NCBI GenBank assembly: GCA_031395945.1
Contig: JANNJV010000509.1
Coordinates: forward strand, 1-49,998
Direction of reading: 5' to 3'
DNA length: 49,998 nucleotides
Source: Gemmatimonadota bacterium
GTDB lineage: Bacteria; Gemmatimonadota; Gemmatimonadetes; Gemmatimonadales; Gemmatimonadaceae
Made by a program: the position numbers and the translations under genes. Each line of letters opens with the position of its first letter. Position 1 is the stretch's first letter. Shown piece after piece: positions 16,911-43,978 of this stretch. The notes under the pieces were generated by a model that had not been told where the DNA came from, made no database searches, and saw only the letters and a program-made list of their open reading frames with translations.

Positions 16911-16911
16911 G

Positions 16912-25210: not shown

Positions 25211-26398
25211 ATGGCCACAGTACGCCTGACCCTTTCTGCGCTCGCGCTCGCTGCGCTGGCCTGCCAACCCTCGAGCGCGCCGCAACCGACGGCCCAGTCC
25301 AATACCTACCTGCTGCGCCTTGGCAACGACACGCTCGCCGTCGATCAATTCACGCGCAGCGCGGACCGGATAGAGGGCACACTCGTCACGCATCTGCCGC
25401 GGACGGTCGTCACGCGATATACCGTGACGATCAACCCTACGACGGGAATGGCGTCGCAGCTCGTGTACAATTCGCGTCTGCCGGACGGCAGCATGATCGT
25501 CGCGCCGAACAACCAGCCGAGCGTCCGCCAGGTGACCATCAGCTTCATGGGTGACAGCGCCATGCAGCAAGTGCAGCGCGACACCGTCATCACGGTGCGC
25601 GCGCTCGCACGCAACGCGTTTCCCTATCTCAACTACAGCGTCGCCTTCTTTCAGCTGCCGGTGGCCAGGCTACGCGCCGCCAACGCGGATAGCGCCACGA
25701 ACGCTATCTACACGGGCGGACGTGTTACCACGCCGATGTTGGTCAGGCGCACGGGGAGCAATCAGTACTCCGTGAGCATCGGAGGGTTTCCCTACACCGT
25801 GACGACCGACAACGCTGGCGTCATTCAGAGTGTCGATGGCGCGCGCACCACACAACACTTCATCGCCACCCGTCAGGGCGAGATAGACGCAGCGGCGCTC
25901 GCGACGGCCTGGGCGCAGCGTGAGCGCGACGTGCGCCCCATCGCGGCACTTTCCGTCCGTGACACTACCCGCGCAACGGTCGGACCCGCGGAATTGTGGG
26001 TGGACTATGGCCGCCCAACGACGCGTGGCCGGAGAGTGTGGGGTCCGTCGGGCGTCCTGAACGACACCATCTGGCGTACGGGCGCCAACGCGGCCACGCA
26101 GTTCCGCACCAACGTGCCGATCACCATCGGCGGGCAGGTAGTGCCCGCGGGCACCTACACTCTCTGGACATTGGCGGTGCCCGGTCGCTACCAGTTGATC
26201 ATCAACAAGCAGACGGGCCAGTGGGGCACCCAGTACGACGCGAAGCAGGATCTCGTTCGCATACCGTTGCAGGCGCGTCAGCTGGGACAGCATGTCGACC
26301 GCTTCACGATCGCGATCGAACCGACCGGAGCAGCGTCGGGTCTGCTCAAGCTCCAGTGGGACATGACCGAGCTCTCGGTTCCATTCACCGCGCAATAG
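25211..26398 (+). CDS. Lipoprotein with C-terminal DUF2911 domain
   Basis: Lipobox LAALAC. C-terminal IWRTGANAATQFRTNVPITIGGQVVPAGTYTLWTL...YQLIINKQTGQWGTQYD...DRFTIAIEP...LKLQWD matches the DUF2911 pattern as I recall it. Confidence 0.8.
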   Translation: MATVRLTLSALALAALACQPSSAPQPTAQSNTYLLRLGNDTLAVDQFTRSADRIEGTLVTHLPRTVVTRYTVTINPTTGMASQLVYNSRLPDGSMIVAPNNQPSVRQVTISFMGDSAMQQVQRDTVITVRALARNAFPYLNYSVAFFQLPVARLRAANADSATNAIYTGGRVTTPMLVRRTGSNQYSVSIGGFPYTVTTDNAGVIQSVDGARTTQHFIATRQGEIDAAALATAWAQRERDVRPIAALSVRDTTRATVGPAELWVDYGRPTTRGRRVWGPSGVLNDTIWRTGANAATQFRTNVPITIGGQVVPAGTYTLWTLAVPGRYQLIINKQTGQWGTQYDAKQDLVRIPLQARQLGQHVDRFTIAIEPTGAASGLLKLQWDMTELSVPFTAQ

Positions 26399-26968
26399 GT
26401 GACGCGTCTTCTCAACTATTTCTTTCGGGGACTCATCGTCCTCGCTCCGGCCGTCGTCACCATCTACGTCTTCTGGCTGATCTTCAGCGCGGTGGACCAG
26501 TGGATGGGGTTTCGCATTCCTGGTGCGGGGATCGCCGTGACCATCATGCTGATCACGCTCTTCGGGTTTCTGACGTCGAGTGTGCTCGCGCGATGGGTGG
26601 TGAGACTGGTCGACAGCACGTTCAACCGGCTGCCTCTGGTGCGGCTCGTGTATTCGTCCACGCGCGATCTGCTCGCCGCGTTCGTGGGCGAGAAGCGCCG
26701 ATTCGACCGCCCTGTGGTTGTGTCCACGTCGGCCGACGGTATCGAGAAGGCGTTCGGCTTCGTGACGCTGCAGTCGATGGAGCGCTTCGGCCTCGAGGAT
26801 CATATGACGGTGTATCTCCCGTTCTCCTACACGTTCACCGGCGTGATTCGCATCTATCCCAGCAGCAACGTTCGCCCGCTAGCCACCGACAGTGCGGAGC
26901 TGATGGCGTTCGTGGTATCCGGCGGCGTGACCGCGGCGACGACGCGTGGCGCCGATTCGCGTCGTTGA
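26399..26968 (+). CDS. DUF502 family membrane protein
   Basis: The GTG start immediately follows the upstream TAG. FRGLIVLAPAVVTIYVFW...IPGAGIAVTIMLITLFG...RLPLVRLVYSSTRD...TGVIRIYPSSNVRPL...FVVSGG fits DUF502. Confidence 0.8.
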   Translation: MTRLLNYFFRGLIVLAPAVVTIYVFWLIFSAVDQWMGFRIPGAGIAVTIMLITLFGFLTSSVLARWVVRLVDSTFNRLPLVRLVYSSTRDLLAAFVGEKRRFDRPVVVSTSADGIEKAFGFVTLQSMERFGLEDHMTVYLPFSYTFTGVIRIYPSSNVRPLATDSAELMAFVVSGGVTAATTRGADSRR

Positions 26969-27980
26969 CATCACCGACGACGCGGGTGGCCGTGACGTCT
27001 TCCACGCGCTTGTCGCGCCACTGTATCAGCACGAGCCGGCCGGCACGGCGCCGCAGCGGACGACGGTCGAGCGCAATCTGACGCGGGACACGTTCGCCGG
27101 CAGCCAACGCCTCTTCGTCGCGTTCGACGGCGATCGCGCCGTTGCCCGGATCGGCGCGCGCTTGTCACCAACCCTGCGCGACGAGCGAGGACTGCCGTTC
27201 GGCATGCTCGGTTTTTTCGAAGCCCAGCCGCGGGCGGACGCGGCACACGCGATGTTCGCCGCGGCCACGGCCTGGCTGCGCGCGCGCGGTGCGGGCAGGA
27301 TCGTCGGCCCGATGGATGGGGATACGTGGCACCGGTATCGAGTCAATGCAGGCCCGTTCATCCGGCCCCCATTCCCCCTCGAGCCGTGGAACCCGCCGTA
27401 CTACCGCGAGCTCTGGGAGGGTGCCGGGTTCACCCCGGTCGAGTCGTACAGCTCGAAATGGATCGGCGATGTCGCAACGCTGCTGCCCGGATTGCGCGAG
27501 GGGGCGGCGCGCAGCGCGTCACGAGGTGTTCGTATTCGCGGACTCGACCGGGACCGGATCCCTGAGGAACTCGCCATCGTCCATGCGATTTCATCAGAGA
27601 TCTTTCACGACGCATTTCTCTATTCGCCCATCGGGCGGGACGACTTTCTTGCCATGTACGGCGGCGTCGAACGGTTGCTCGATCCGGAGCTGGTCGTTTT
27701 CGCGGAATCTCCTGACGGCCAGGCGGTGGGATTCGTTTTCGCGTACGCCGATCCGCGCGAACCCGCGGTGCACTACAAGACCATAGGCGTGAAGGCCGAC
27801 TGGCGCCGATCGGCCGTGGCAGCCGCGCTGTCCGCTCACGTGTACGGGAACGCGCTCAAGAAAGGCCTGCCTGGCGGGAATCACGCGCTGATGCGCGACG
27901 ACAACCGCTCGCAGGCGCTGGACCAGGGGTTTGGCGACGTGTTTCGTCGGTATCTGCTCTACGAGTGGAGCGGGGCGTGA
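26946..27980 (+). CDS. Two-lobed GNAT-like acyltransferase (tentative)
   Basis: GTG start overlapping DUF502 by 23 nt. GPMDGDTWHRYR, EPWNPPYYRELWEGAGF, and a C-terminal acetyl-CoA-loop-like segment TIGVKADWRRSAVAAALSAHVYGNALKKG. The fold call is from pattern memory only. Confidence 0.55.
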   Translation: MAPIRVVDITDDAGGRDVFHALVAPLYQHEPAGTAPQRTTVERNLTRDTFAGSQRLFVAFDGDRAVARIGARLSPTLRDERGLPFGMLGFFEAQPRADAAHAMFAAATAWLRARGAGRIVGPMDGDTWHRYRVNAGPFIRPPFPLEPWNPPYYRELWEGAGFTPVESYSSKWIGDVATLLPGLREGAARSASRGVRIRGLDRDRIPEELAIVHAISSEIFHDAFLYSPIGRDDFLAMYGGVERLLDPELVVFAESPDGQAVGFVFAYADPREPAVHYKTIGVKADWRRSAVAAALSAHVYGNALKKGLPGGNHALMRDDNRSQALDQGFGDVFRRYLLYEWSGA

Positions 27981-29563
27981 GCGCCAACGTCGCGCAGCTC
28001 TTCCTGGAGTCGGCACGGCGCAACGGCGACAGGCCCGCGTTCCTGTCATCCACTGGCGGTTGCATCACGTTCGGCGAGTTGCGCGCGCGGGTCGACGCGT
28101 TCGCGGGCTGGTTGATGGACCGTGGTGTCGGACCAGGCGATCGCGCGGTGTTCATGCTGCCCATGTCCATCGATCTCTATGTCACCGTACTTGGCACGCT
28201 GTCGGCCGGCGGCGTCGCGGTGTTCGTGGATCCCTGGGTGCCGATACGCGAGATCGCGCGAATGGCGGTCATGGTGCGGCCGGTCGTGTTTGTCGGAACT
28301 CCGAAGGCGCATCTGATGCGACTCCTCGAACGCGAACTGCGGAGTGTTCGTTTTGCCATCACGACTGGAGGGCGCCTGTCGCTGTTTGCGGCGCGCTTCC
28401 GATTGAGCGAGTTGCGTGGCCGCACAGGCTCACCCATGATCGCCGACGTCTCGCATGACGCGCCGGCGCTCATCACGTATACCTCGGGCTCCAGCGGAAC
28501 GCCCAAAGGCGTCAACCGCACCCACGACATTCTGGCGGCGCAGCATGCGGTCATTCGCGACGAATTCCCAGCGGACGCCAACGATGTCGACCTCACCACA
28601 TTCCCCGTATTCGCGTTGAGCAACCTGGCTGCGGGGATTCCAAGCGTCATTCCACCCGTGAACCTGCGGCGTATCGCCGCGGCCGACCCGCGCCTGCTGC
28701 TCACCGACATCCGCCGCTACGCCGTATCCACCGCCGCCGCCTCGCCGCCCCTGTTCGACGTACTGAGCGACTACCTGCGTGCGTCCGGCGAAGCGCCACC
28801 GCGTCTGCGCAGAATTGTGACCGGTGGCGCACCGGTACGTGACGACCAATTGCGTCGCTGGTGCGACACCTGGCCGCAGACCGAGATCGTCGTCGCCTTC
28901 GGCTCCAGCGAAGCGGAGCCGGTGGCAAGCATGTCCGCTGACGAGCGCCTGAAGGTGAGTCGTGGCGGACCGGGATTCTGCGTTGGCACTCCGGTGAGAA
29001 GTGTGCGGGCGAAGGTCATACCCATTACTCGCGCTTCAGTCGATCGGGTGTCGGAGGCGCCAAGCGGCGCGATCGGCGAGCTCGTGGTCAGCGGTCCCCA
29101 CGTGTGTCGCGACTATGCCGACGACAAACGAGCGTTCGCCGAGAACAAGATCCGCGACACCGACGGGACGATCTGGCATCGCATGGGTGATACCGGATAC
29201 TTCGACGACGCTGGCCGCTTTTGGCTGGTGGGGCGTGTGCACTCAACCATACGCCGGGGCGGCGTGGACCTGCATGCGCAGGTCGTCGAATCCGTGACGC
29301 GCGGGGGCGATGCGCGGATTCGACGGGTAGCAGCGCTCGGTATTCCCGACCCCGTACTCGGCGAGCGCCTGGCGATCGTCGTCGAAAGCGAAACGCCAGG
29401 CGTGCGTGCAGACATCGAGGCGAGATTGGCCGCGGCGCATCCGCCGGTGCCGGTGGACCAGCTGATCGTGACGCGCGCCGTGTTGCCAGTAGACCCGCGG
29501 CACAACAGCAAGGTGGACTACCCGCGCCTGCACCAGATGCTGCAGGCAGGAGCGCTTTCGTGA
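27965..29563 (+). CDS. Adenylate-forming enzyme (acyl-AMP/CoA ligase superfamily, OleC/FAAL-like)
   Basis: A3 motif ITYTSGSSGTPKGV, FGSSEAEP, A8 GDTGYFDDAGRFWLVGR, C-terminal PVDPRHNSKVDY. The start is GTG at 27965 or GTG at 27977, which gives a GTGA overlap with the upstream stop. Confidence 0.85.
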   Translation: MERGVSANVAQLFLESARRNGDRPAFLSSTGGCITFGELRARVDAFAGWLMDRGVGPGDRAVFMLPMSIDLYVTVLGTLSAGGVAVFVDPWVPIREIARMAVMVRPVVFVGTPKAHLMRLLERELRSVRFAITTGGRLSLFAARFRLSELRGRTGSPMIADVSHDAPALITYTSGSSGTPKGVNRTHDILAAQHAVIRDEFPADANDVDLTTFPVFALSNLAAGIPSVIPPVNLRRIAAADPRLLLTDIRRYAVSTAAASPPLFDVLSDYLRASGEAPPRLRRIVTGGAPVRDDQLRRWCDTWPQTEIVVAFGSSEAEPVASMSADERLKVSRGGPGFCVGTPVRSVRAKVIPITRASVDRVSEAPSGAIGELVVSGPHVCRDYADDKRAFAENKIRDTDGTIWHRMGDTGYFDDAGRFWLVGRVHSTIRRGGVDLHAQVVESVTRGGDARIRRVAALGIPDPVLGERLAIVVESETPGVRADIEARLAAAHPPVPVDQLIVTRAVLPVDPRHNSKVDYPRLHQMLQAGALS

Positions 29564-30516
29564 CCGTCACGACGCTGCCGGTCACGCGCACCGATCCTTA
29601 CGTGACGCGGCTCCGCGCGTACATGCGCGAGCGCTTCCCCTTGTTCGGACACGTGCTGCTCATCATCAGCTACTTCTCGTCCAATCAGTTTCTGGCGAAA
29701 GTGCTGGTGAATCCCGGCGAGCCGATGCGCTATACCGCGCAGTCACTGCTCGGTGCTCTCACGCTGCTCCTCTTCTTCTGGCACCTGCGCATCTTCGACG
29801 AGCACAAGGATTTTGCCGAGGACTCACGTTTCCATTCGCATCGCGTGCTGCAACGCGGCGTGATCACGTTGGCCGAGCTGCGGATCCTGGCAGCGATCGC
29901 GATTGCTGCGGAGTTCGCGCTCGCTGCCGCCGCCGGAGTCGCGGCGATGACCGGACTCGCGATGGCCTTCGCGTTCTCGCTGCTCATGCTCAAGGAGTTC
30001 TTCGCCGCCGCCTGGCTGAAGCGGCATTTCCTGGTGTACGCCACGTCGCACATGCTGCTCATGCCGCTGCTGTCGCTGATGGTGTTCAGCTTCGCGACGC
30101 GGCAGATGCCCTGGCGCGCGCCGCCCGTCTTCTGGGTGTACGCCTTCGTGGGATTCTTCGTCACCTTCAATGTCGAGGTATCGCGGAAGATTCGTGCTCC
30201 CGAAGATGAGGTCGAGGGACTGGACTCGTATTCGAAGATCTTCGGTACTTACGGGGCCGCGTGGATCGTGCTGGGGTTGCGACTGATCGATACGACGCTG
30301 GTGTCTTTCGTGGGCCACGCCATCGGCGTGAGCCCGTGGTTCTATGTCGCGGTGGGCGCGCTGTTCCTGATGACCCTCGGCACCTTCATCCGATTCCGCA
30401 CGCACACCTCGACGGCCTCGGCTAAAGCGCTGGAGCGCAACGCCGGGCTGTATCTCATCGCGTTCGACCTCATCCTTGCGATCGAGTTGGTCAGGATGCA
30501 CGGCTTCAGAAGATGA
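29560..30516 (+). CDS. UbiA-superfamily integral membrane prenyltransferase
   Basis: The GTG at 29560 overlaps the ligase TGA (GTGA). About 8 TM segments. First Asp-rich motif FDEHKDFAED, second region APEDEVEGLDSYSKIFG. The earlier part of track ORF 29221..30516 overlaps the ligase. Confidence 0.75.
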   Translation: MTVTTLPVTRTDPYVTRLRAYMRERFPLFGHVLLIISYFSSNQFLAKVLVNPGEPMRYTAQSLLGALTLLLFFWHLRIFDEHKDFAEDSRFHSHRVLQRGVITLAELRILAAIAIAAEFALAAAAGVAAMTGLAMAFAFSLLMLKEFFAAAWLKRHFLVYATSHMLLMPLLSLMVFSFATRQMPWRAPPVFWVYAFVGFFVTFNVEVSRKIRAPEDEVEGLDSYSKIFGTYGAAWIVLGLRLIDTTLVSFVGHAIGVSPWFYVAVGALFLMTLGTFIRFRTHTSTASAKALERNAGLYLIAFDLILAIELVRMHGFRR

Positions 30517-33131: not shown

Positions 33132-33167
33132 TCGCATTCGGCGCAATTCGGTCCAGGCGTTCATCGG

Positions 33168-34478
33168 TTACTGGATTGTCCAGGTGGGAATCGCGCGCTG
33201 GTACTGCAGTGCCGCGACCACAGCAGTTGCGACGATAGCCGTGACGGCAGGAATGAAATCCCCCAGGCGTGACGCGGCCGGGTACCGCGTTCGCATCGCG
33301 AGCGCTGCCGCACCGCCCAAAAGCGCCACTGTAAAGAGCACCGCAATGGACGATGGCGGGTATGCGATGGCGAACGCAGTCGGAATCAGGACGATGGCCA
33401 AGCACGCGCCGAGGGCTAGCACCAACGCGCGCGGACGGTGTCCCGCCGCCTGAGCAACGCCGATCACGGTCATCGCGGCCGCAGCACCGAGGAACGGCGC
33501 GTACCAGAAGTTGTGCGCGTCATTCATGTTCGAGACGATCAGAATTGCGACCAGGGGCAAGCACGCGCGCGCCACCGGCCGCACGCCGATGTACCGGCCG
33601 GAGAACCGTCCCGATCGCGCCGTGACCAGTGCGACCATGGCGATCAGGACCGGCAGTGCCCAGAGCGGCGAACCCAGTGACCACAGACCGTAGGTGAAGA
33701 GCAACACCGCGATCGTCGCGCCGACGTTCAACCCGGGAAACCGATGCGCGCCGATTCCGATCACCGCGCAAAGACCCACGAAGCTGGCGTTCTGGAAGAC
33801 GATCTCAGGCAACGGCTTCGTGGTGATCTTGCCCAGAATCACGCACGCGGCGATTGGAACGAAGAGATTGTCGGCGCCGCGCAGGGAAATGGCCTCGAAT
33901 CCCGTCACCACGAGCGCCACGAGCAACGCCGAGAGCACCACCGTGGGACGGTCGAGGTCCGTGAGGAGCAGCATTGGCAGGTGGATCGCCAGGAACGCCA
34001 CCACCAGAAATACCAGCGAGCCCTCGACGCTCTTGCTCTCCTCCTCCACCCGGTACCGCACACGTCCGTACTCGCTGCCCACGAGAGCGGCAAAGGCGTC
34101 CGCGATGCCAAGGGTCAACAACGCGGCCAGATAGCGCCAATAGTCGTCGCCGGCAAGAACAAATACGAGGAAGACCGCCAGCGGGTAGTACTCGCTTCCG
34201 CGACTCGACCGCGCGATGCCGCCCACGCTGCGCAACACTTTTCCCTTGGCCGTCACGAAAAACAGCAGCGAGAGCCCGATGGTAAGCACGAAGGCCACCA
34301 GTGTGGAGCGCACGAGCAACGGCAGAAAGACACCGATCGCGCTGCCACCGAGGTGCACCAGCTTGCGGGTGTGTTCGGGTTTGCCGTTCCAGCGTCTCGC
34401 CCACAGCTCGGCGAGAATGAGAATGACCGTGAACAGGCCGGCGATGACGGTTGCGCCGCGGAGATCGCCGGATGCCAT
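33168..34478 (-). CDS. Polyprenol/phytol kinase-like (Sec59/DolK/VTE5-CdsA superfamily) domain fused to an additional multi-TM C-terminal region
   Basis: The ATG at 34478 shares its A with the DUF3419 TGA. HTRKLVHLGGSAIG, SRGSEYYPLAV, GIADAFAALVGSEYGRVRY..ESKSVEGSLVF, EAISLRGADNLFVPI. About 230 further residues of TM helices follow. Track start 34676 overlaps the upstream gene. Confidence 0.7.
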   Translation of the reverse strand: MASGDLRGATVIAGLFTVILILAELWARRWNGKPEHTRKLVHLGGSAIGVFLPLLVRSTLVAFVLTIGLSLLFFVTAKGKVLRSVGGIARSSRGSEYYPLAVFLVFVLAGDDYWRYLAALLTLGIADAFAALVGSEYGRVRYRVEEESKSVEGSLVFLVVAFLAIHLPMLLLTDLDRPTVVLSALLVALVVTGFEAISLRGADNLFVPIAACVILGKITTKPLPEIVFQNASFVGLCAVIGIGAHRFPGLNVGATIAVLLFTYGLWSLGSPLWALPVLIAMVALVTARSGRFSGRYIGVRPVARACLPLVAILIVSNMNDAHNFWYAPFLGAAAAMTVIGVAQAAGHRPRALVLALGACLAIVLIPTAFAIAYPPSSIAVLFTVALLGGAAALAMRTRYPAASRLGDFIPAVTAIVATAVVAALQYQRAIPTWTIQ

Positions 34479-35569
34479 CACAGAGTCTCCTCGAGCACGA
34501 ACGCGCTGTAGAAGAAGGCGCGGTCCACCGCGAACAGGGCGTGGGCGCGCTCGCCCAGAGAGCGCACCCGGTCCGCGAACACGTCCGGCCGTTGTCGAGG
34601 GACGAGCATGTTCCAGTAGGCCAGTCGTGCCTTGGGGGCCGCGGCCGTCAGGAGGATGCCGTACATCGCGGTACACGCCTCCGGGTCGAGGTACTCGAAG
34701 ATGTCCGAGAGATTGAATCCGTCGAACGGTCCGTGCGTCGCAGCCGCGGCTTCGGCGGCGCCGCGGATCAACGTGAGCCGATCCATCGCGTCACGCAGCG
34801 CTGGGAACCGTTCGCGCGCGAGGTATCGCGGAAGTGTCGCCCCGAAGCGGCCGGTAAAAATGAAGTTGAGGTACGGGTTGGAATGGGTGGGGAGGACGGT
34901 GAATGCGTATTTCGCGCGTCCCATGATGCGATCGGCGACGCTGCCCTCCACGTAACGGAAGAACTCCGGATCCCGGCCCATCAGTCCCATCACACGCCGG
35001 CTGAAGAACACCTTGAACAAGAGACGCCAGCGCCAGTTGTCCCAGGTCGTCGCATAGAATCGCGTGCGTTCGCTTTCGTTCTTTTCGGCGAGCAGTTCCC
35101 GCACGCTTGCCCGACCATGGAAGAGCGGAACGATGCGCCGCCGGAACGTCTCGAAATACCGCTCGAATTTTCCGGCGTGCACGATGCCGCGCCTGATCTC
35201 CTCGGGCCGTGTATCCCAGAACGCGCGCGCCGATGCGGGAAGGTCTGGAGCGAGGCTCGCATAGGTCGCGTCTCGCGCGCTGCCTGGTGCGATTCCCAGG
35301 AATGTCAGGAGGTCGTCGTACTCCAGTCGCCGGATCGCCGCGCGCTTGAGTTCCACCATGGCCAGTTGGGCCTCGCTCAGATCGACCGCTACGACCGTCG
35401 CTCCAGCCGCCGCGAGCGCGAAGCTGTTGTCACCACCGGAGGCAATCGAGAGCATGCGCTTGCCCGGCGCAGGCTGGAGCGCCTGGCACAGGACGTCCGC
35501 ATCTTCCCAGCAATTCGCGTAGCGGACGTAGTCGAACCGCGCGCGCTGTTCGATGCGGTCGCGGGTCAA
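34478..35569 (-). CDS. DUF3419 / BtaA-like SAM-dependent 3-amino-3-carboxypropyl-transferase homolog
   Basis: FDYVRYANCWEDADVLCQAL...KRMLSIASGGDNSFALAAAGATVVAVDLSEAQLAMVELKRAAIRRLEYDDLLTFLG is the DUF3419 N-terminal signature. The TTG start overlaps the HMGR stop (TTGA). Confidence 0.8.
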   Translation of the reverse strand: MTRDRIEQRARFDYVRYANCWEDADVLCQALQPAPGKRMLSIASGGDNSFALAAAGATVVAVDLSEAQLAMVELKRAAIRRLEYDDLLTFLGIAPGSARDATYASLAPDLPASARAFWDTRPEEIRRGIVHAGKFERYFETFRRRIVPLFHGRASVRELLAEKNESERTRFYATTWDNWRWRLLFKVFFSRRVMGLMGRDPEFFRYVEGSVADRIMGRAKYAFTVLPTHSNPYLNFIFTGRFGATLPRYLARERFPALRDAMDRLTLIRGAAEAAAATHGPFDGFNLSDIFEYLDPEACTAMYGILLTAAAPKARLAYWNMLVPRQRPDVFADRVRSLGERAHALFAVDRAFFYSAFVLEETL

Positions 35570-36870
35570 GGCGCTGGTGCTTCGGGCTTCGGCGTGCCGG
35601 CTCGGCCAAAGGTTGCGTGGGCGGCGCTGAACTCGCCCGCGGCCAACGCGCCGGCAATGCTGAGCTCACCCGCCAGCGCGGTCACGCCGCAGATTTCGGC
35701 AAACTTCCGTGCCTGGCCACTGCCCACGCAGCCCACCATCTCCAGACATTCGCGCGCCGTGGGCAGGTGCGTCCCGCCGCCCACGGTGCCGACGATGACG
35801 GTGGGCAGCGTGAGTGAGAGGTACAGATCTCCTGCCTCGGTGACGTCGAAGCGTGTGAGTCCGACGGCCACCTCCGACACGCACGCGACGTCCTGCCCAC
35901 AGGCCAGGAAGAGCGCGGTGAGCCCGTTTGCGACGTGTCCCTGCATGCCGATGGAGCCGCTTTGCAGACTCCCGAGCAGCGCCACCTCCCAGTAGCGCTT
36001 GATCTGCTGCGGCGTGGTATGCAGGAATTTGGCAACCAGAGCCGAGGGGACGATGACTTCCGTCACGACGCGCTTTCCGCGCGTCATCTGGAATGCCAGG
36101 TGGGTAGCCTTCTTGTCCCCGGAAAGGTTCGCCTCGATGAACCAGGTAACGGGTTTGACGGGCGACGTCTCCACGAGTTGCCGACAGATCGCTTCCGTCG
36201 CCAGCGTCACCATGTTCTGGCCGGCCGCGTCGCCCGTGGTGAACTGAAAGAGCAGGAACACTTCCTTGCCCACCAGCGACGGCGTGACGTCGAGCAGCTT
36301 CGCGTGCCTGGAGGAACCCGCGACCGCACGGGTGATCCCGTCCGCGCTGTCCAGCACATGCGCCAGGAAGCGTCCCGCTTCGACCGTGGTGGTGAAGACG
36401 AACCCGGGCCCGCGCGATACGGCTTCGGTGAGGCACAGTGCCGTGGCGCCACCCGATTCGCTGATGAGCCGCGCGCCACGTTGGAACGATGCGACCAGCG
36501 CACCCTCGGTGGTCGCGAGTGGAACGTAGAAATCTCCGTGTGCGACGGACCCATTGATGCGAAGCGGACCGATCACGCCCACGGGGACTCGGGCGAACCC
36601 GACCATCGACTCGATGTTGCCAGCCAGCTTTTCGGGATCGATCTCCTCGCCCTCGCCCGCCAGCTGATCGACCGAGAATCCGCGCGAACGAAGGAATTCA
36701 CGGCGTTTCAGCACGGCGGCCTGGCTGTAGTCGTCCTTCGCCGGCACCGATGGCGGCAACGGCTCTGATGCCGGCAGCCGGGGCGACAGTTCGGCGGCCA
36801 CCGTGGCGGCGTCCCGGTCCGCGAGTACCCTGCTGAGAATCTGCTTGGCCTGCCGGTCGGTGGTTGCCAC
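35566..36870 (-). CDS. Class I (archaeal/eukaryotic-type, soluble) HMG-CoA reductase
   Basis: GNIESMVGFARVPVGVIGPL, VPLATTEGALVAS, TGDAAGQNM, SGDKK...RGKRVV, GTVGGGT, C-terminal ..AAH... . All four catalytic positions (E, K, D, H) appear present. GTG start 6 nt after the upstream stop. Confidence 0.88.
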   Translation of the reverse strand: MATTDRQAKQILSRVLADRDAATVAAELSPRLPASEPLPPSVPAKDDYSQAAVLKRREFLRSRGFSVDQLAGEGEEIDPEKLAGNIESMVGFARVPVGVIGPLRINGSVAHGDFYVPLATTEGALVASFQRGARLISESGGATALCLTEAVSRGPGFVFTTTVEAGRFLAHVLDSADGITRAVAGSSRHAKLLDVTPSLVGKEVFLLFQFTTGDAAGQNMVTLATEAICRQLVETSPVKPVTWFIEANLSGDKKATHLAFQMTRGKRVVTEVIVPSALVAKFLHTTPQQIKRYWEVALLGSLQSGSIGMQGHVANGLTALFLACGQDVACVSEVAVGLTRFDVTEAGDLYLSLTLPTVIVGTVGGGTHLPTARECLEMVGCVGSGQARKFAEICGVTALAGELSIAGALAAGEFSAAHATFGRAGTPKPEAPAP

Positions 36871-36876
36871 AGTTGC

Positions 36877-38499
36877 CTATCGTTGCAGTGCGTTGATGAG
36901 CACCACGCCATCGAGCTTTTCGATGGGCTTCGCGCCAGTGATTGCGGCCAGCGTCGGCGCGATGTCCACGGTTCGCGCAAACTCGGTGTACCGGCCCGGC
37001 TTGGCCCATGGTCCGTAGAAAATGATCGGCACGTGGGCATCCAGATCGTACGGTGAACCATGCGTGGCGGTCGCGCGATACCAATAGCTGTAACGCGTGA
37101 GGGTGACCACGAGATCGACGCCCGCGTTCGCGGGAATCTGGTGCGCCCAGCGGCGTGCCACCGGGTCGAGCGCGAAGTCGGCGCGCAGAATGTCCCGCAT
37201 GCGGTCGACTCTCGCGACCCCCGGCACGTTCAGGACGGCCCGGCGGAACACGTTCAGCAGGGAATCCGCATTGAGCTTCGCGGCGGCGATGGCCTCGCGA
37301 TTGAGCGACACAAGCTCGCCATCGACGAGAAGCGCCAGCGTATCGGCGCCTGCCACGCGCAGCGCATTACGGAAAGCCGCGATGGGGTCGCGAAGAGAAA
37401 CGATCAGGCCCTGGTTGCCGGTGGCCTCGCCGCGACGGCGCGCCAGCTCTGGGATGGGCTGGACGCCGTGATCCCCGGTCAGCGCAATGATGATCGAGCT
37501 GGAATCGCGCAGCCGGTATAACGAGTCCAGAAACCAGCCCAGCGTCTCGTCCAATCGGATCTCATTCTCGTGCGCCTCGCGCGAATCGGGACCGTACGAG
37601 TGTCCCACCGCATCGGTGGACGAGAACGACACCGCCAGGACGTCTGTATGCCCCCCCCGACCGAGCCCGGTGCGCTGGAGGCCTTCCAGCGCGAAGAGCG
37701 CGGTGAGCGAATCCAGAGTCGGCGTCCCCATGAGAGCCGCGGTGACGCGCGCGGTGTCCTCGGGGAGCTGGTAGGGGAACACGCTGCGCCCGCCGTTCTC
37801 TTCCGGAACCGTGTCCGGCTCGGCGTACTTGGATGCCTCCCGCGACAGCCGCCATTGTCCGCCCGCGTAGCGTTGCGGAATGCGGCGGGCGTTGAACTCC
37901 GTCACCCAGGTGGGCAGCGTGTCGCGGTAGTAGTTGCTCGTCGTGAAGGCGCCGCTTGCCGAATACCAGTAGACGTCCTGTTTGGCGCGCCCGATGGGCA
38001 GAATTGCACCCCGGTCCTTTCGCGAGACGGACAGCGCTCGCGTCGCCGGGTTCTTGGCGTACAACCAATCGAAGAGCGTCGTACCCACAAACCGTTCGGG
38101 CGAGGCGCCAGGCTCGGTCTCGAGTCCAGACAGCAACGCGTACCGGCCGTCGGCAACGCCGGCCGAGTTTGAGACGATGCCCGTACTGCGCGGGAACCGT
38201 CCGGACAGGATGCTCGCATGCCCTGGCGCCGTCTCGGTGATGGCGTGATCCTGAAAGGCGTTCACGAACCACGCGCCGCGCATCAGTCGCGCGTACCCAT
38301 GTCGCAGATCCGCGCGATAGCGGTCGAGCATGTCGCCGCGAAGCTGATCGATCGTGATGAGCACCACGAGCTTCGGCGTAGTGACGGGGATCGGTGACAG
38401 GGGCACGCCTTCCGCGGATGCGGTCGCGTGCATGCATCCGATCAGCGAGGTCAACCCGAACAGAGAACCCAGGATCCAGCGTGTGCGGCGCAGCGACAT
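36877..38499 (-). CDS. Secreted alkaline-phosphatase-superfamily enzyme (type I phosphodiesterase/nucleotide pyrophosphatase family)
   Basis: I prefer ATG 38499 (MSLRRTRWILGSLFGLTSLIGC signal, possible lipobox). VLITIDQLRGDML, nucleophile region AITETAPGHASILSG, ALTGDHG. The upstream 130 codons of track ORF 36877..38889 cross the intergenic region. Confidence 0.85.
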   Translation of the reverse strand: MSLRRTRWILGSLFGLTSLIGCMHATASAEGVPLSPIPVTTPKLVVLITIDQLRGDMLDRYRADLRHGYARLMRGAWFVNAFQDHAITETAPGHASILSGRFPRSTGIVSNSAGVADGRYALLSGLETEPGASPERFVGTTLFDWLYAKNPATRALSVSRKDRGAILPIGRAKQDVYWYSASGAFTTSNYYRDTLPTWVTEFNARRIPQRYAGGQWRLSREASKYAEPDTVPEENGGRSVFPYQLPEDTARVTAALMGTPTLDSLTALFALEGLQRTGLGRGGHTDVLAVSFSSTDAVGHSYGPDSREAHENEIRLDETLGWFLDSLYRLRDSSSIIIALTGDHGVQPIPELARRRGEATGNQGLIVSLRDPIAAFRNALRVAGADTLALLVDGELVSLNREAIAAAKLNADSLLNVFRRAVLNVPGVARVDRMRDILRADFALDPVARRWAHQIPANAGVDLVVTLTRYSYWYRATATHGSPYDLDAHVPIIFYGPWAKPGRYTEFARTVDIAPTLAAITGAKPIEKLDGVVLINALQR

Positions 38500-38517: not shown

Positions 38518-38590
38518 GTACGTTCGAGCAAGATGAGCGGGCGATCGAGTGCCCGCCAATACGTATCGGAGGCTACGTATCAAGTACGTA
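38518..38590. promoter_or_regulatory. Cluster of four TACGT cores (two TACGTATC direct repeats plus TACGTA) in a divergent intergenic region; candidate operator
   Basis: TACGT at 38518, TACGTATC at 38560 and 38574, TACGTA at 38585, all in the lower-GC spacer between gene starts at 38499 (-) and 38646 (+). Confidence 0.35.
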
Positions 38591-38645
38591 AACATGGCGA
38601 GACACGCGCGGGAACAATATTGTAGCGTCACTCGATTACGGAGCG

Positions 38646-39692
38646 TTGGTGGCAGAAGCTCAAAACGTGGCACCTCTGGCTCCTCGCGGGCTACAGAATG
38701 TCGTCTTGCGCACCGCGGTCTATTACGTGGTGTTGTTCGGCGCGGCATCGCTGCTGTGGCGTCTGCCACAGGCCAAGGCGGTAATGCAGGGATCCCTGGA
38801 CGCGCTGTTTTCGGCGCAGGGGTTCCCCGGACTGGGCCCGGCCACGCCGGAACCCGCCAGCGCCGCCATTGGGGCCACGACGCTTGCACTGACGGTGGCC
38901 ACCGCGATGCTCGGTGCGGTGCTGCTCGCGCTCCCGGTCGCGTGGATCTACGGGCTGACGCGAAAGAAAAAGGGTTACCAGCAGTCGGTGGTGCAGACGC
39001 TCATGGTGCTGCCGCCTCTGGTCGCCAGCGTCGTGGTGCTCGTGAAATACTCGCTGGCGCTGGCCTTTGGTCTTGGCGCGATCGTCGCCGCGGTGCGCTT
39101 TCGAAACACCCTCGAGGACAGCAAGGACGCGGTCTACATCTTTCTGGCCACGGCCATCGGACTGGCGGCAGCGGTGCAGCTCCCCGTCGCCGCTGTGATT
39201 TCAGTGCTCTTCAACGTGCTGGTGCTCGCGCTCTGGTACACGGATTTCGGGAAGGCCACTGCGTTCGAGGGTGACCGCGCGAAGCGCAGGCTGGAGCAGA
39301 CGCGCTCGCGAATGCGTCAGACGGGAACATTCGTGGCGACGGTGGACAAAGAGCTGTTCGAGAACATGTCTGCCGAACAGTTGGAGCTGGTCGCGGACAG
39401 CGCCTGGCGCCGCCGCCGCCGGATGGAGTCGGACGAGCCGGACGACGAAGAGATGCAGCGTCGGGACGTATTGCTGCGGCTCAAGACCAACGACGCCGAG
39501 GCCACGCGCATCGCCGTGGAGGGCCTCTTCGACGACTTTCTCAAGAAATGGCGCTTAGGGGGAGTGGTGCACGAGAAGGACGGAACGCACGTTGTGGAGT
39601 ACGCGGTGCAGCTCAAAAAGGAAGCGCGCTCGTCAGATCTGCTCGATGCGTTGAACGCGAAATCCCCGGTCATCGGGGTGGAGATCAAATGA
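38646..39692 (+). CDS. DUF4956 membrane protein with a long charged/ACT-like cytoplasmic C-terminus
   Basis: Core FGLGAIVAAVRFRNTLEDSKDAVYIFLATAIGLAAAV matches the DUF4956 signature (GLFAI..IRYRT...YLF..I..G) as I recall it. GGAG lies 5-8 nt upstream. The start is TTG at 38646 or GTG at 38649. Confidence 0.75.
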   Translation: MVAEAQNVAPLAPRGLQNVVLRTAVYYVVLFGAASLLWRLPQAKAVMQGSLDALFSAQGFPGLGPATPEPASAAIGATTLALTVATAMLGAVLLALPVAWIYGLTRKKKGYQQSVVQTLMVLPPLVASVVVLVKYSLALAFGLGAIVAAVRFRNTLEDSKDAVYIFLATAIGLAAAVQLPVAAVISVLFNVLVLALWYTDFGKATAFEGDRAKRRLEQTRSRMRQTGTFVATVDKELFENMSAEQLELVADSAWRRRRRMESDEPDDEEMQRRDVLLRLKTNDAEATRIAVEGLFDDFLKKWRLGGVVHEKDGTHVVEYAVQLKKEARSSDLLDALNAKSPVIGVEIK

Positions 39693-40777: not shown

Positions 40778-40818
40778 TCTGGAAGCGCGATACCACGTTT
40801 GTGGGGAGAGACCGCACG

Positions 40819-43977: not shown

Positions 43978-43978
43978 G

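Follow-up and report, generated by a model that had tools for sequence, protein, structure and literature searches.

Do the two facing, tightly packed operons at positions 25211–38499 of the window (the whole 49,998-nucleotide stretch of Gemmatimonadaceae DNA analysed here) encode one pathway, and what might that pathway make? Ten ORFs were confirmed in this region, with the families and overlapping start and stop junctions given in a preliminary description; Pfam and NCBIfam agreed with every family label except that of the kinase-like protein, and the junctions were read directly from the sequence. The plus-strand block (25211–33131) begins with a DUF2911 lipoprotein gene (25211–26398; Pfam DUF2911, E 7e-40), the TAG of which abuts the GTG of a DUF502 membrane protein gene (26399–26968; Pfam DUF502, E 2e-23) at 26396–26401. 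The latter overlaps by 23 nt (26946–26968) the gene for a putative 344-aa tandem-GNAT N-acyltransferase (26946–27980; a weak Pfam GNAT match, 3.5e-4). GTGA junctions at 27977 and 29560 lead on to an adenylate-forming ligase of the OleC/PRK09274 clade (27965–29563, 532 aa, or 528 aa from the GTG at 27977; AMP-binding, E 4e-52) and a divergent UbiA-superfamily membrane transferase (29560–30516, 318 aa; Pfam UbiA, 5e-10), and an ATGA at 30513 to an Rph/PigC-type ATP-grasp phosphohistidine dikinase (30513–33131, 872 aa; PPDK_N 2e-74, PEP-utilizers 1e-23). The convergent stops of the two blocks, at 33131 and 33168, lie 36 nt apart. On the minus strand (33168–38499), the gene for an AlkP-superfamily (PafA/NPP-like) lipoprotein (36877–38499; Pfam Phosphodiest, E 7e-25) is separated by 6 nt (36871–36876) from that of a 434-aa HMGR-like reductase (35566–36870; Pfam HMG-CoA_red, E 8e-105), which overlaps through TTGA (35566–35569) the gene for a 363-aa DUF3419/BtaA-like SAM-dependent transferase (34478–35569; Pfam DUF3419, E 1e-61); this in turn overlaps through TGATG (34476–34480) the gene for a 436-aa polyprenol-kinase-like integral membrane protein (33168–34478). 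The tight coupling noted earlier therefore holds. None of the ten proteins reached an NCBIfam equivalog cut-off, full-text literature searches found nothing on this gene combination, and it is not covered by a curated family, in agreement with the earlier statement that no characterised pathway with this set was known.

Together, the two facing operons amount to a single, uncharacterised set of seven enzyme genes, encoding the HMGR-like, DUF3419/BtaA-like and polyprenol-kinase-like proteins, the Rph-type dikinase, UbiA, the adenylating ligase and the tandem GNAT. The kinase-like family was recovered in 79 loci from other genomes, and because the arrangement is conserved in these loci, it reflects more than chance. 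Carriers of the set, which spans at least eight phyla and is often a single one-strand operon, belong to Gemmatimonadota, Acidobacteriota, Verrucomicrobiota, Planctomycetota, Desulfobacterota, Nitrospirota, Alphaproteobacteria and Bacillota; they include the cultured Brevibacillus laterosporus and Phormidium tenue. All 43 loci with at least 8 kb of sequence on either side of the kinase-like gene contain DUF3419, and the dikinase is present in 29 of them, UbiA in 25, the ligase in 23, the GNAT in 18 and the HMGR-like gene in 15. The complete set occurs in 12 of the 43, from at least six phyla. In another 13 only the DUF3419–kinase pair is found within 10 kb, so that this pair must either make sense alone or have its partner genes elsewhere; 1.9 Mb separate the pair from the GNAT gene in one Acidobacteriota genome. 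All-against-all clustering of the locus ORFs revealed no other family common to loci across phyla.

Gene order varies across phyla, with the seven genes shuffled between the two blocks, but certain pairs stay together: DUF3419 and the kinase-like gene are neighbours in 73 loci, a median of 21 nt apart, UbiA adjoins the dikinase in every layout examined, and in 19 of 21 loci the ligase and GNAT genes are adjacent. A co-directional single operon is present in Geobacter, Nitrospirota, Devosiaceae and Brevibacillus, the one-strand order being seen in B. laterosporus B9 and LMG 15441, and the B. laterosporus cluster has a cytochrome P450 as an eighth gene. The ligase and HMGR-like reductase are an optional front end: a five-gene core (kinase-like, dikinase, UbiA, DUF3419 and GNAT) also occurs without them, standing alone in P. 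tenue and accompanied by a different reductase, an SDR, in a Paceibacterota (Patescibacteria) genome. The proposal that each block makes one product is not borne out by these layouts, in which genes swap blocks or form one co-directional operon. Independent occurrence of the blocks was looked for across the loci and the opposite was found, genes of both blocks being intermixed.

Nor do all ten genes form one set, since three fall outside the conserved seven. DUF2911 is present only in the window, being absent even from L003, the locus of the closest relative, and from all other loci. DUF502, with which coupling in the plus operon starts, and the AlkP lipoprotein, encoded first in the minus operon, are lineage-specific accessories, found beyond the window only in L003/L007, from close Gemmatimonadaceae relatives. 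The AlkP protein has a signal peptide with the lipobox LIGC and scores 283 with the PafA model (cut-off 650). The gene heading the operon encodes this PafA-like AlkP in the window, PhoX in Phormidium, a PLD-like protein in Geobacter and a patatin phospholipase in Devosiaceae, and a phosphatase or phospholipase at this position in four lineages hints at phosphate-stress lipid remodelling. Genes for DUF4956 and polyphosphate kinase adjoin the cluster in the window, and an MMPL exporter gene lies in the cluster of one Planctomycetia locus. The earlier suggestion of a lipid product is consistent with this exporter, with the PLD-like and patatin proteins of other lineages, and with the two integral-membrane enzymes.

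The HMGR-like protein had been described as a class I HMG-CoA reductase and counted among the enzymes of isoprenoid chemistry. Its class I fold is confirmed; its active site departs from the canonical one. Alignment with the best PDB match, 6hr7, reveals Glu at the equivalents of both Ser684 and His866, which in canonical HMGR are the HMG-carboxylate-binding and the catalytic residue, respectively. Substitution of both sites, by Glu or Asp, is conserved in 21 cluster-linked homologues and in Brevibacillus, and nearly all cluster-linked members have the two residues replaced, whereas Glu559, Lys691 and Asp767 are retained; the equivalents of the carboxylate-binding Lys692 and Lys735 are for the most part retained too, and the NADPH and CoA motifs are kept. 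The canonical Ser/His pair was seen in 1 of 151 sequences (the window protein and its 150 closest representatives at 50% identity), and the TIGR00533 score is 325.7 versus a cut-off of 441.8. Domain fusions among 66 long members scanned involve APH (16), EcKL (12), AMP-binding (9), PP-binding (5), DUF3419 (2) and ACBP (2), and fusions of related HMGR-like proteins with PilZ domains and with an AfsA hotdog domain were also seen. DUF3419 is joined to the HMGR-like domain in P0244 and in P0297, a DUF3419–HMGR-like–kinase protein followed by UbiA and dikinase; P0351 has the architecture A-T-HMGR-like-kinase, with dikinase and UbiA genes following, and L086 encodes the A-T-HMGR-like-kinase protein alongside a CDP-alcohol phosphatidyltransferase and a CarS-like enzyme. 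In the Paceibacterota locus, an SDR of the NAD_binding_4 thioester-reductase type occupies the HMGR position. Because of the substitutions, the A-T, kinase and DUF3419 fusions and the SDR replacement, the HMGR-like enzyme looks like a thioester-to-primary-alcohol reductase and not a supplier of mevalonate. No mevalonate-pathway gene is conserved across the loci, and in those parts of the window that were searched with Pfam models no HMG-CoA synthase, mevalonate kinase or decarboxylase appeared, which also makes its role in isoprenoid chemistry doubtful.

Neither Pfam nor NCBIfam gives any match to the kinase-like protein, and its polyprenol-kinase-like label stands on other grounds. Sources name its homologues phytol/dolichol kinase or "diacylglycerol/polyprenol kinase family", the motifs HTRKLVH, DAFAAL.G and KS.EGSLVF are invariant, and hhalign matches it with 98% probability to the N-terminal half of a Bacilli protein, the C-terminal half of which is DUF92, the VTE6 family. 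On these comparisons, its N-terminal ~230 aa are assigned as a VTE5/dolichol-kinase-type CTP-dependent kinase domain; the C-terminal ~200 aa form a transmembrane domain of no assigned function. In L085 the membrane kinase is replaced by a soluble kinase domain of the APH type. The DUF3419 protein matches profile positions 4–382 of 385, with an additional weak Rossmann methyltransferase match in Pfam, and is the proposed donor of a 3-amino-3-carboxypropyl (homoserine-type) head group. If it works as BtaA does, it would need a free lipid alcohol and would compete with the kinase for a similar substrate, unless the two use different molecules or act sequentially.

The dikinase carries the SILSHSAIVARE motif, with His829 as the predicted catalytic residue, and scores 866.5 with NF004881 (cut-off 883). 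The RedH, PigC and Rph models match it far below their cut-offs, the first two over its full length; among PDB entries the Listeria rifampin phosphotransferase 5fbs matches it best, and its orthologues have an Rph_4th domain. The UbiA protein scores 39.5 bits with Pfam (cut-off 34.2) and has DExKDxxxD as its first motif instead of NDxxDxxxD. Its family profile best matches DGGGP synthase 6m31 (E 1e-5), followed by chlorophyll synthase (0.015). UbiA enzymes are known to accept diphosphates of allylic, benzylic or anomeric type, and a saturated fatty-alkyl one would serve them poorly as donor, so a transferred chain would need to be either isoprenoid or 2-enoyl-derived. The ligase, which has the P-loop TSGSSGTPK and lacks the NRPS Asp235-type FDxS motif, scores 396 bits with NF006754 and 273 bits with OleC, versus at most 165 bits with generic fatty-acid CoA ligases. 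Of its two possible starts, 27965 and 27977, the second is favoured because the L003 orthologue overlaps its GNAT gene by 4 nt. An AlphaFold2 model of the GNAT protein (pLDDT 93) predicts a tandem-GNAT amine N-acyltransferase fold; the best Foldseek matches are tandem GNATs that act on amines, namely MAB_4324 (TM 0.64), MshD, glucosamine N-acetyltransferase and the clavulanate tandem GNAT, with FemX/MprF-type folds scoring lower (TM about 0.4).

By analogy with characterised relatives, we tentatively propose, with a likelihood a little short of even, that the region encodes one conserved pathway making or remodelling an ether-linked, amino-acid-headed membrane lipid, in which the HMGR-like enzyme does not serve mevalonate formation. 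The ligase would activate a carboxylic acid, probably lipidic and possibly 3-hydroxy or 2-enoyl, as a thioester, and the HMGR-like enzyme would convert this into a primary alcohol by a four-electron reduction; where a lineage has neither gene, the pathway would start from an alcohol that is already available, for instance phytol, a polyprenol or a fatty alcohol. The VTE5-like membrane kinase would phosphorylate the lipid alcohol with CTP, and the dikinase would add the second phosphate, a phosphate-to-diphosphate step for which we know of no precedent in Rph-type enzymes. The UbiA enzyme would then move the activated chain onto an oxygen nucleophile with release of pyrophosphate, giving an ether or ester. 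The DUF3419 enzyme would attach a 3-amino-3-carboxypropyl group from SAM, and the tandem GNAT would N-acylate its amine, for which the ligase itself might provide the acyl-CoA. This route is predicted to yield an N-acyl-homoserine-type lipid that is ether-linked and free of phosphorus and that, judging by the neighbouring genes, may be used under phosphate stress. A plain alkyl substrate does not account for the acidic residues found in place of Ser684 and His866, which would better suit a cationic, amino-bearing one.

Such residues, together with the mostly kept Lys692 and Lys735, suit an ammonium-bearing substrate and hence a different, Kennedy-like reading, which we regard as unlikely: the acid activated would be either a small one of amino or betaine type or the homoserine carboxylate introduced by DUF3419; the HMGR-like enzyme would reduce it to an amino alcohol, a kinase would phosphorylate this, and the phospho-alcohol would become the polar head group, while UbiA and the dikinase gave an isoprenoid anchor. 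The kinases most often fused to the HMGR-like domain (APH, EcKL and choline-kinase-fold) usually have amino alcohols as their substrates, a fungal A-T-R-R enzyme reportedly reduces glycine betaine to choline, and the L086 neighbours, the direct DUF3419/HMGR-like fusions and the amine required by the GNAT would also fit. However, the ligase without an FDxS motif belongs to the OleC/fatty-acid-ligase clade, the ACBP fusions and FAR-type SDR replacement point to acyl-CoA substrates, the cluster kinase is a membrane-embedded polyprenol-kinase homologue and not a soluble amino-alcohol kinase, and the core in P. tenue dispenses with ligase and reductase. Somewhat less probable again is a specialised metabolite in place of a bulk membrane lipid: a signal, surfactant or antibiotic of the prenylated N-acyl amino-acid type, which the cell would produce in low quantity and export. 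The patchy distribution, which bears the mark of horizontal transfer and includes two unrelated gene orders in distant phyla, favours it, as do the P450 in B. laterosporus, a prolific natural-product producer, the full-length matches of the dikinase to the prodiginine condensing enzymes RedH and PigC, the PilZ and AfsA hotdog fusions and the MMPL exporter. Yet one carrier is a Paceibacterota with a reduced genome, four lineages have a phosphatase or phospholipase gene at the head of the operon, the closest analogies (BtaA, DGGGPS and VTE5) are to primary lipid pathways, and no NRPS/PKS core, regulator or resistance gene is conserved across loci.

It is quite improbable that two unrelated functions are merely linked, with prenol salvage (kinase-like, dikinase and UbiA) feeding ordinary quinone or isoprenoid-lipid synthesis beside a BtaA-type betaine-lipid module (DUF3419, GNAT and ligase). 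Pair-only loci, whose other genes can be elsewhere in the genome, and the Bacilli VTE5-like/DUF92 fusion, which shows that stand-alone prenol salvage exists in bacteria, would allow this, but the always-adjacent DUF3419 and kinase cross the two supposed modules, P0297 fuses DUF3419, HMGR-like and kinase domains ahead of UbiA and dikinase, and single operons hold all seven genes in at least six phyla. Most improbable is a genuine mevalonate-forming HMGR supplying isoprenoid precursors for the UbiA step. The intact class I fold, with catalytic Glu, Lys and Asp and NADPH and CoA motifs, and the sharing of the cluster with UbiA and a prenol-kinase homologue speak for it, whereas the replaced His866 and Ser684, the sub-threshold TIGR00533 score and the lack of mevalonate genes in the scanned parts of the window and of any conserved across the loci speak against it; moreover, the HMGR-like gene is dispensable in many carriers, with an SDR instead in one, and the A-T-domain fusions of its relatives make no sense for HMG-CoA.

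In the lipid pathway that we prefer, the reductase, kinase and dikinase series would parallel the classical sequence of HMGR, kinase and phosphokinase, and the kinase and dikinase steps would parallel the action of VTE5 and then VTE6 in plants. For the transfer step, the nearest solved relatives of the UbiA enzyme are the O-prenylating DGGGP synthase and chlorophyll synthase.

All ten open reading frames of the preliminary description are present in the window, which has a GC content of ~65% and whose nearest relatives are metagenome-assembled genomes of the Gemmatimonadaceae and Gemmatimonadales. Nine of the ten family labels were borne out by Pfam and NCBIfam, the one protein lacking a curated-family match being the kinase-like membrane protein (33168–34478, minus strand, 436 aa). 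The close packing of the genes was confirmed as well. On the plus strand, the genes for the DUF2911 protein (25211–26398), DUF502 protein (26399–26968), tandem GNAT (26946–27980), adenylating ligase (27965–29563), UbiA (29560–30516) and Rph-type dikinase (30513–33131) abut or overlap at 26398/26399, 26946–26968, 27977–27980, 29560–29563 and 30513–30516. On the minus strand, the HMG-CoA reductase-like (HMGR-like; 35566–36870), DUF3419/BtaA-like (34478–35569) and kinase-like genes overlap at 35566–35569 and 34476–34480, and 6 nt lie between the HMGR-like gene and that of an AlkP-type lipoprotein (36877–38499). The stop codons of the two convergent operons are separated by 36 nt. A shared terminator in this gap was considered and rejected, because it contains no terminator-like site and the promoter/terminator scan performed no better than its shuffles. 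Elsewhere in the window, 16807–19215 (plus strand) encodes a FadB-like multifunctional protein of reversed domain order, in which 3-hydroxyacyl-CoA dehydrogenase is followed by enoyl-CoA hydratase.

The suggestion that these genes form two blocks, each making one product, did not survive comparison with other genomes, where seven of them travel together across phyla in other orders, including one-strand operons. Using an alignment of kinase-like homologues, we fetched 79 loci from one-genome-per-species collections and searched them with the window proteins; 43 of these were well flanked, with 8 kb or more of DNA on either side of the kinase-like gene. In 73 of the 79 loci, the gene immediately preceding the kinase-like gene is that for DUF3419, at a median gap of 21 nt. 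Of the well-flanked loci, 29 encode the dikinase, 25 UbiA, 23 the ligase, 18 the GNAT and 15 the HMGR-like protein; 13 have the DUF3419-kinase pair without other members of the set. Twelve of the 43 contain the complete seven-gene set, and these belong to the Gemmatimonadota, Acidobacteriota, Verrucomicrobiota, Planctomycetota, Desulfobacterota and Nitrospirota, plus one unclassified genome; an alphaproteobacterial (Devosiaceae) complete set came from loci with shorter flanks. Geobacter, Nitrospirota and Devosiaceae carry all seven on one strand as a single operon, whose order differs from that of the window: HMGR-like, UbiA, dikinase, DUF3419, kinase-like, GNAT, ligase. Three adjacent pairs are constant, namely DUF3419-kinase, UbiA-dikinase and GNAT-ligase (the last adjacent in 19 of 21 loci), and all-against-all clustering of every open reading frame in the 79 loci revealed no eighth family common to several phyla. 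DUF2911 is missing even from a Gemmatimonadaceae locus 74% identical to the window, and that locus is the only one outside the window to carry DUF502 and the AlkP-type lipoprotein. Cross-phylum co-occurrence, gene orders and adjacencies thus identify the two blocks of the window as one conserved seven-gene set with local additions.

A single Thermoanaerobaculia metagenome-assembled genome (JTS-RE88; loci L006 and L008) has the DUF3419-kinase pair twice, one copy beside dikinase, UbiA, ligase and GNAT, and the second beside an HMGR-like gene. On a 3.48-Mb Acidobacteriota contig (L084, 8418–11092), the tandem-GNAT gene lies 1.9 Mb from the DUF3419-kinase pair and is translationally coupled to a gene whose 528-aa product matches no family significantly and does not resemble the ligase. 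Apparent UbiA-dikinase fusions in two loci (L080 and L056) were discarded, as the match coordinates revealed only out-of-frame extensions of open reading frames in GC-rich DNA. The complete operon, together with a cytochrome P450 gene, is found in cultured Brevibacillus laterosporus B9 and LMG 15441, both outside the catch of the pattern-limited genome scan. In LMG 15441 it occupies roughly 2.586–2.607 Mb of CP007806.1, the genes being those for the HMGR-like protein, UbiA, dikinase, DUF3419, kinase-like protein, GNAT, ligase and P450.

In the cultured cyanobacterium Phormidium tenue FACHB-886, the order is PhoX, UbiA, dikinase, DUF3419, kinase-like, YjbQ and GNAT, with neither an HMGR-like gene nor a ligase, and the ligase is likewise absent from a Paceibacterota and a Syntrophobacteraceae locus. 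These versions lead us to view the set as a five-gene core with an optional front end that would convert an acid to an alcohol. The leading gene of the operon varies with lineage: a PafA-like lipoprotein of the alkaline phosphatase superfamily in the window, PhoX in Phormidium, a PLD-like protein in Geobacter, a patatin phospholipase in Devosiaceae and an MMPL exporter in a Planctomycetia locus. The window cluster also adjoins genes for DUF4956 and a CYTH-fused polyphosphate kinase. Such neighbors suggest, short of proof, that the cluster may be tied to phosphate stress and phospholipid turnover.

In the polyphosphate region of the window (38646–44007), the gene for a DUF4956 membrane protein and an open reading frame without annotation lie beside the gene for a 1062-aa polyphosphate kinase 1, a protein with an N-terminal extension of ~370 aa bearing a CYTH (triphosphate tunnel) domain. 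The same arrangement occurs in the 74%-related locus L003. Just upstream of the DUF4956 start, both the window (38612–38627) and L003 (about 5827–5842) retain ACAATATTGTAGCG, containing the palindrome ACAATATTGT, which could serve the DUF4956/polyphosphate gene set as an operator or promoter element. Three direct copies of TACGTAW, with none expected by chance, lie at 38560–38591 (plus strand) in the divergent spacer between the AlkP and DUF4956 genes. A phosphate-box-like regulator site upstream of the AlkP gene was rejected as their explanation, and the triplet was left out of the evidence, because it is missing from the orthologous L003 spacer; it may be a strain-specific regulator site.

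The HMGR-like protein has the class I HMG-CoA reductase fold (Pfam HMG-CoA_red, E 8e-105), and its closest solved structure is an archaeal HMGR with ~45% identity to the window protein. It retains equivalents of Glu559, Lys691, Asp767, His752, Asn755 and Arg590 (human numbering) and the DAxGxN and GTVGGG motifs, and the TTEG, DKK and GQD motifs are found in the window protein and 20 homologues. Two other residues are replaced. In canonical enzymes the catalytic His866 of the C-terminal flap protonates the CoA thiolate, and Ser684 of the cis-loop binds the HMG carboxylate; the window protein has Glu at both equivalents (GALAAGEF for the former). Of 21 cluster-linked homologues, L068 and L080 alone keep His at the His866 position and L066 has Gln; most have Glu or Asp there, and all 21 have Glu or Asp at the Ser684 position (motif V-E-G-N-L-S-G-D-K-K). 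The Brevibacillus protein shows both substitutions, with Asp at the His866 position. The protein misses the equivalog level of TIGR00533 (325.7, cut-off 441.8). No mevalonate-pathway genes were found in the Pfam-scanned parts of the window, and none are conserved within 10 kb in the 79 loci.

Searching 1.84 billion cluster representatives in full with HMMER recovered 3594 clusters related to the HMGR-like protein. The canonical Ser/His pair is present in just one of 151 sequences, comprising the 150 nearest representatives and the window protein. A scan of 66 long members for extra domains found APH (kinase fold) in 16, PilZ in 15, EcKL (kinase fold) in 12, AMP-binding in 9, PP-binding in 5, and DUF3419 and ACBP in 2 each, in architectures that include adenylation-thiolation (A-T)-HMGR-like, A-T-HMGR-like-kinase and DUF3419-HMGR-like-kinase. 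Two of the fusion genes (L085 and L086) adjoin genes for UbiA and an Rph-type dikinase, and so appear to represent the same pathway in other packaging. Furthermore, the Paceibacterota locus has an SDR of the NAD_binding_4 (thioester reductase) type at the position expected for the HMGR-like gene, and a different SDR is present in the Syntrophobacteraceae locus. From the active-site changes, the fusions and the replacement by SDRs, we infer that the HMGR-like protein would act as a thioester-to-alcohol reductase, after the adenylating enzyme and before the kinase. The sequence survey suggests that HMGR-fold thioester reductases make up a large family, so far uncharacterised, and many bacterial "HMG-CoA reductase" annotations are probably wrong: the nearest 150 clusters nearly all lack the Ser/His pair, and many carry fused adenylation, carrier, kinase, PilZ or DUF3419 domains.

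N-terminal PilZ domains (in 15 of the 66 long members, taken from the nearest HMGR-like representatives, P0241–P0390) suggest c-di-GMP-regulated HMGR-fold reductases, and further members carry response-regulator, ACBP, AfsA-hotdog or 4HBT domains. At L086 (609–10472), an A-T-HMGR-like-APH/EcKL fusion gene is followed by those for a CDP-alcohol phosphatidyltransferase, a 136-aa unassigned protein, an Rph-type dikinase, UbiA, a CarS-like protein and PilZ; judged by its gene content, this locus looks like a sister pathway using CDP chemistry instead of DUF3419 and GNAT. The orphan HMGR of Vibrio fluvialis plasmid pIDH5335-3 (L093, 9761–11023) is ~50% identical to the window protein over residues 85–405; its gene is flanked by hypothetical genes and by modABC, and no cluster partner accompanies it. 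This long-known class I HMGR, typical of Vibrio, was accordingly rejected as part of this system, the V. fluvialis gene standing alone beside mod/lux genes, as were the plasmid HMGRs of Sinorhizobium and Alteromonas, which have other gene contexts.

The kinase-like protein gave no Pfam or NCBIfam match even at E values up to 1, and neither sequence nor family-profile searches of the PDB returned a match. Nevertheless, the motifs HTRKLVH, DAFAAL.G and KS.EGSLVF are invariant in 13 aligned sequences and agree with the set RKxxH ... DxxAxxxG ... K(S/T)xEGS, which we take to be the mark of the CTP-dependent polyprenol/phytol/dolichol kinase family. Its N-terminal 230 residues align by hhalign (98% probability, ~217 columns) with the N-terminal half of a VTE5-like/DUF92 fusion from Bacilli, and NCBI names its homologues "diacylglycerol/polyprenol kinase family". 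DUF92 is the VTE6 phytyl-phosphate kinase family; the possibility that the C-terminal half is a diverged DUF92/VTE6 domain was rejected (hhalign probability 0.1%), and the Paceibacterota protein, at just 208 aa, lacks this half. The AlphaFold2 model is poor (pLDDT 67, catalytic region <50) and gave no significant Foldseek match. No similarity was detected to the CarS-like protein of L086, and we therefore make no claim of cytidylyltransferase activity. The Bacilli fusion itself (L082, 8076–9503, from an uncultured genome) joins a VTE5-like prenol kinase domain and a DUF92/VTE6-family domain in one 475-aa chain, and would be a single-chain two-step kinase converting prenol to prenyl diphosphate.

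The dikinase contains ATP-grasp PPDK_N and swivelling PEP-utilizers domains (Pfam), with predicted catalytic His829 in the motif SILSHSAIVARE, and its best PDB match is 5fbs. It reached none of the cut-offs for Rph (331, cut-off 999), PigC (354, 1300), RedH (398, 1350) or TIGR01418 (269, 740), its closest model being the uncharacterised NF004881 (866.5, cut-off 883). The protein thus resembles the Rph and PigC/RedH dikinases in domain architecture, including Rph_4th in orthologues, and in the catalytic His motif, but scores far under the equivalog cut-offs of Rph, PigC and RedH, and we know of no characterised member of these groups that is paired with a UbiA membrane transferase, as the dikinase is here. 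The UbiA protein itself scores 39.5 bits against a Pfam gathering score of 34.2. Its family profile best matches DGGGP synthase (E 1e-5) and then chlorophyll synthase, both of which alkylate oxygen. Motif 1 is DExKDxxxD, a one-residue register shift from the canonical NDxxDxxxD, and motif 2, canonically DxxxD, mixes Glu and Asp, reading E(D/Q)E.EG.(D/E)(S/T)Y. The acidic residues of these motifs are invariant and may bind metal and diphosphate.

The DUF3419 domain is full length (E 1e-61, profile positions 4–382 of 385), with a weak Methyltransf_25 match at residues 45–76 corresponding to a SAM-binding Rossmann motif. By analogy with BtaA, which transfers the 3-amino-3-carboxypropyl group of SAM to diacylglycerol, we infer that the protein would transfer a SAM-derived homoserine-type group to a putative lipid acceptor. 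Across phyla, the 79 loci share no BtaB-type N-methyltransferase, the annotated loci contain none, and the tandem GNAT occupies its place, which suggests N-acylation instead of N-methylation. The AlphaFold2 model of the GNAT (pLDDT 93) has two GNAT folds in one chain and, by its Foldseek matches (7q3a, 1ozp/2c27, 5kf1 and 2wpw; E 1e-10 to 1e-13, TM 0.56–0.64), resembles amine N-acyltransferases such as MshD. The ligase belongs to the OleC/PRK09274 clade of the ANL superfamily, lacks an NRPS amino-acid motif, and reaches the equivalog level of neither NF006754 (396, cut-off 478) nor OleC (273, cut-off 900).

We tentatively propose, while holding the complete scheme to be doubtful, that the cluster encodes an unrecognised bacterial ether-lipid route. 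The ligase would activate an acid and the HMGR-like protein reduce it to a primary alcohol, unless an existing lipid alcohol is taken instead; the VTE5-like CTP kinase and then the Rph-type dikinase would turn the alcohol into a diphosphate, an order of steps mirrored at L086 by the A-T-reductase-kinase domain order and the dikinase and UbiA genes that follow. The DGGGPS-like UbiA would next move the chain onto an oxygen nucleophile to form an ether bond, and the head group would be a SAM-derived homoserine-type moiety added by DUF3419, its amine N-acylated by the tandem GNAT. Against the second step, we know of no precedent for conversion of a phosphate to a diphosphate by this dikinase family, and against the third, UbiA enzymes require stabilised carbocations. 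The 13 of 43 well-flanked loci in which the DUF3419-kinase pair is alone also count against the scheme, as do the acidic residues in the active site of the reductase, which suit a cationic substrate better. These residues keep alive an unlikely alternative, a pathway that builds the head group.

Full-text literature searches did not find this gene combination, including searches on DUF3419, orphan HMGR, BtaA with HMGR, HMGR-like with adenylation, and homoserine or aminolipid angles, nor anything on these enzymes in B. laterosporus. Bacterial formation of non-plasmalogen ether bonds is understood only in part, as is the replacement of phospholipids at low phosphate outside the Proteobacteria. 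The conserved gene set is a concrete candidate for both questions, in soil and sediment phyla known or suspected to produce ether lipids. If the ether-lipid proposal is correct, a phosphorus-free "hybrid" lipid would be made under phosphate stress in Acidobacteriota, Planctomycetota, Verrucomicrobiota, Gemmatimonadota and others, and the HMGR fold would have radiated unnoticed into a large carboxylate/thioester reductase family used in CAR-like A-T-reductase-kinase enzymes. The HMGR-like family also bears on enzyme discovery and on the inference of mevalonate versus MEP pathways from genomes. Because the full operon occurs in cultivable B. laterosporus and the five-gene core in P. tenue, the hypothesis is readily open to genetics and lipidomics.

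Individual enzymes or elements of its logic link the set to the BtaA/BtaB, phytol salvage, DGGGPS/CarS, ElbD and mevalonate pathways, but it belongs to none of them. With the BtaA/BtaB (DGTS) betaine-lipid pathway of phosphate-starved bacteria and algae it has in common a full-length DUF3419/BtaA-type SAM-dependent transferase and a lipid context with adjoining phosphatase or phospholipase genes, but it has a tandem GNAT instead of BtaB and five further linked enzymes, none of them used in DGTS synthesis. Like plant and cyanobacterial phytol salvage, in which the phytol kinase VTE5 and the phytyl-phosphate kinase VTE6 act before a UbiA-family transferase (VTE2 or ChlG), it combines a VTE5/dolichol kinase-type membrane kinase, a second phosphorylating enzyme (the dikinase, in 29 of the 43 well-flanked loci) and a UbiA-family transferase. 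In contrast to that pathway, the second kinase is an Rph/PEP synthase-type dikinase and not DUF92/VTE6, the ligase and HMGR-like protein could make the alcohol de novo from an acid, and a BtaA-like enzyme and a GNAT are linked to the system. The archaeal ether-lipid pathway (GGGPS, DGGGPS, CarS and CDP-alcohol transferases) supplies the best solved relative of the UbiA protein, DGGGP synthase, and the related L086 cluster has CarS-like and CDP-alcohol phosphatidyltransferase genes beside UbiA and dikinase. However, GGGPS, G1P dehydrogenase and CarS were found neither in the window nor in the conserved set, UbiA motif 1 is DExKDxxxD, and the head group would derive from SAM with no CDP intermediate.

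Myxobacterial ElbD, an ether-lipid enzyme, contains acyl-CoA synthetase, ACP, FAR-type reductase and acyltransferase domains (PMC9131029). There too a fatty acid destined for ether lipids is activated, tethered and reduced in the direction of an aldehyde or alcohol (PMC9131029), and A-T-reductase architectures recur among the HMGR-like relatives; the reductase here has the HMG-CoA reductase fold and not that of an SDR/FAR, and is followed by kinases and a UbiA transferase, with no AGPAT-type acyltransferase. Finally, the HMGR-like protein shares with class I HMGR of the mevalonate pathway its fold, the catalytic Glu, Lys and Asp residues, and the DAxGxN and GTVGGG motifs, but differs in having Glu at both the Ser and His sites, in being without pathway partners, and in its place within a large, non-canonical radiation that includes multi-domain fusions.
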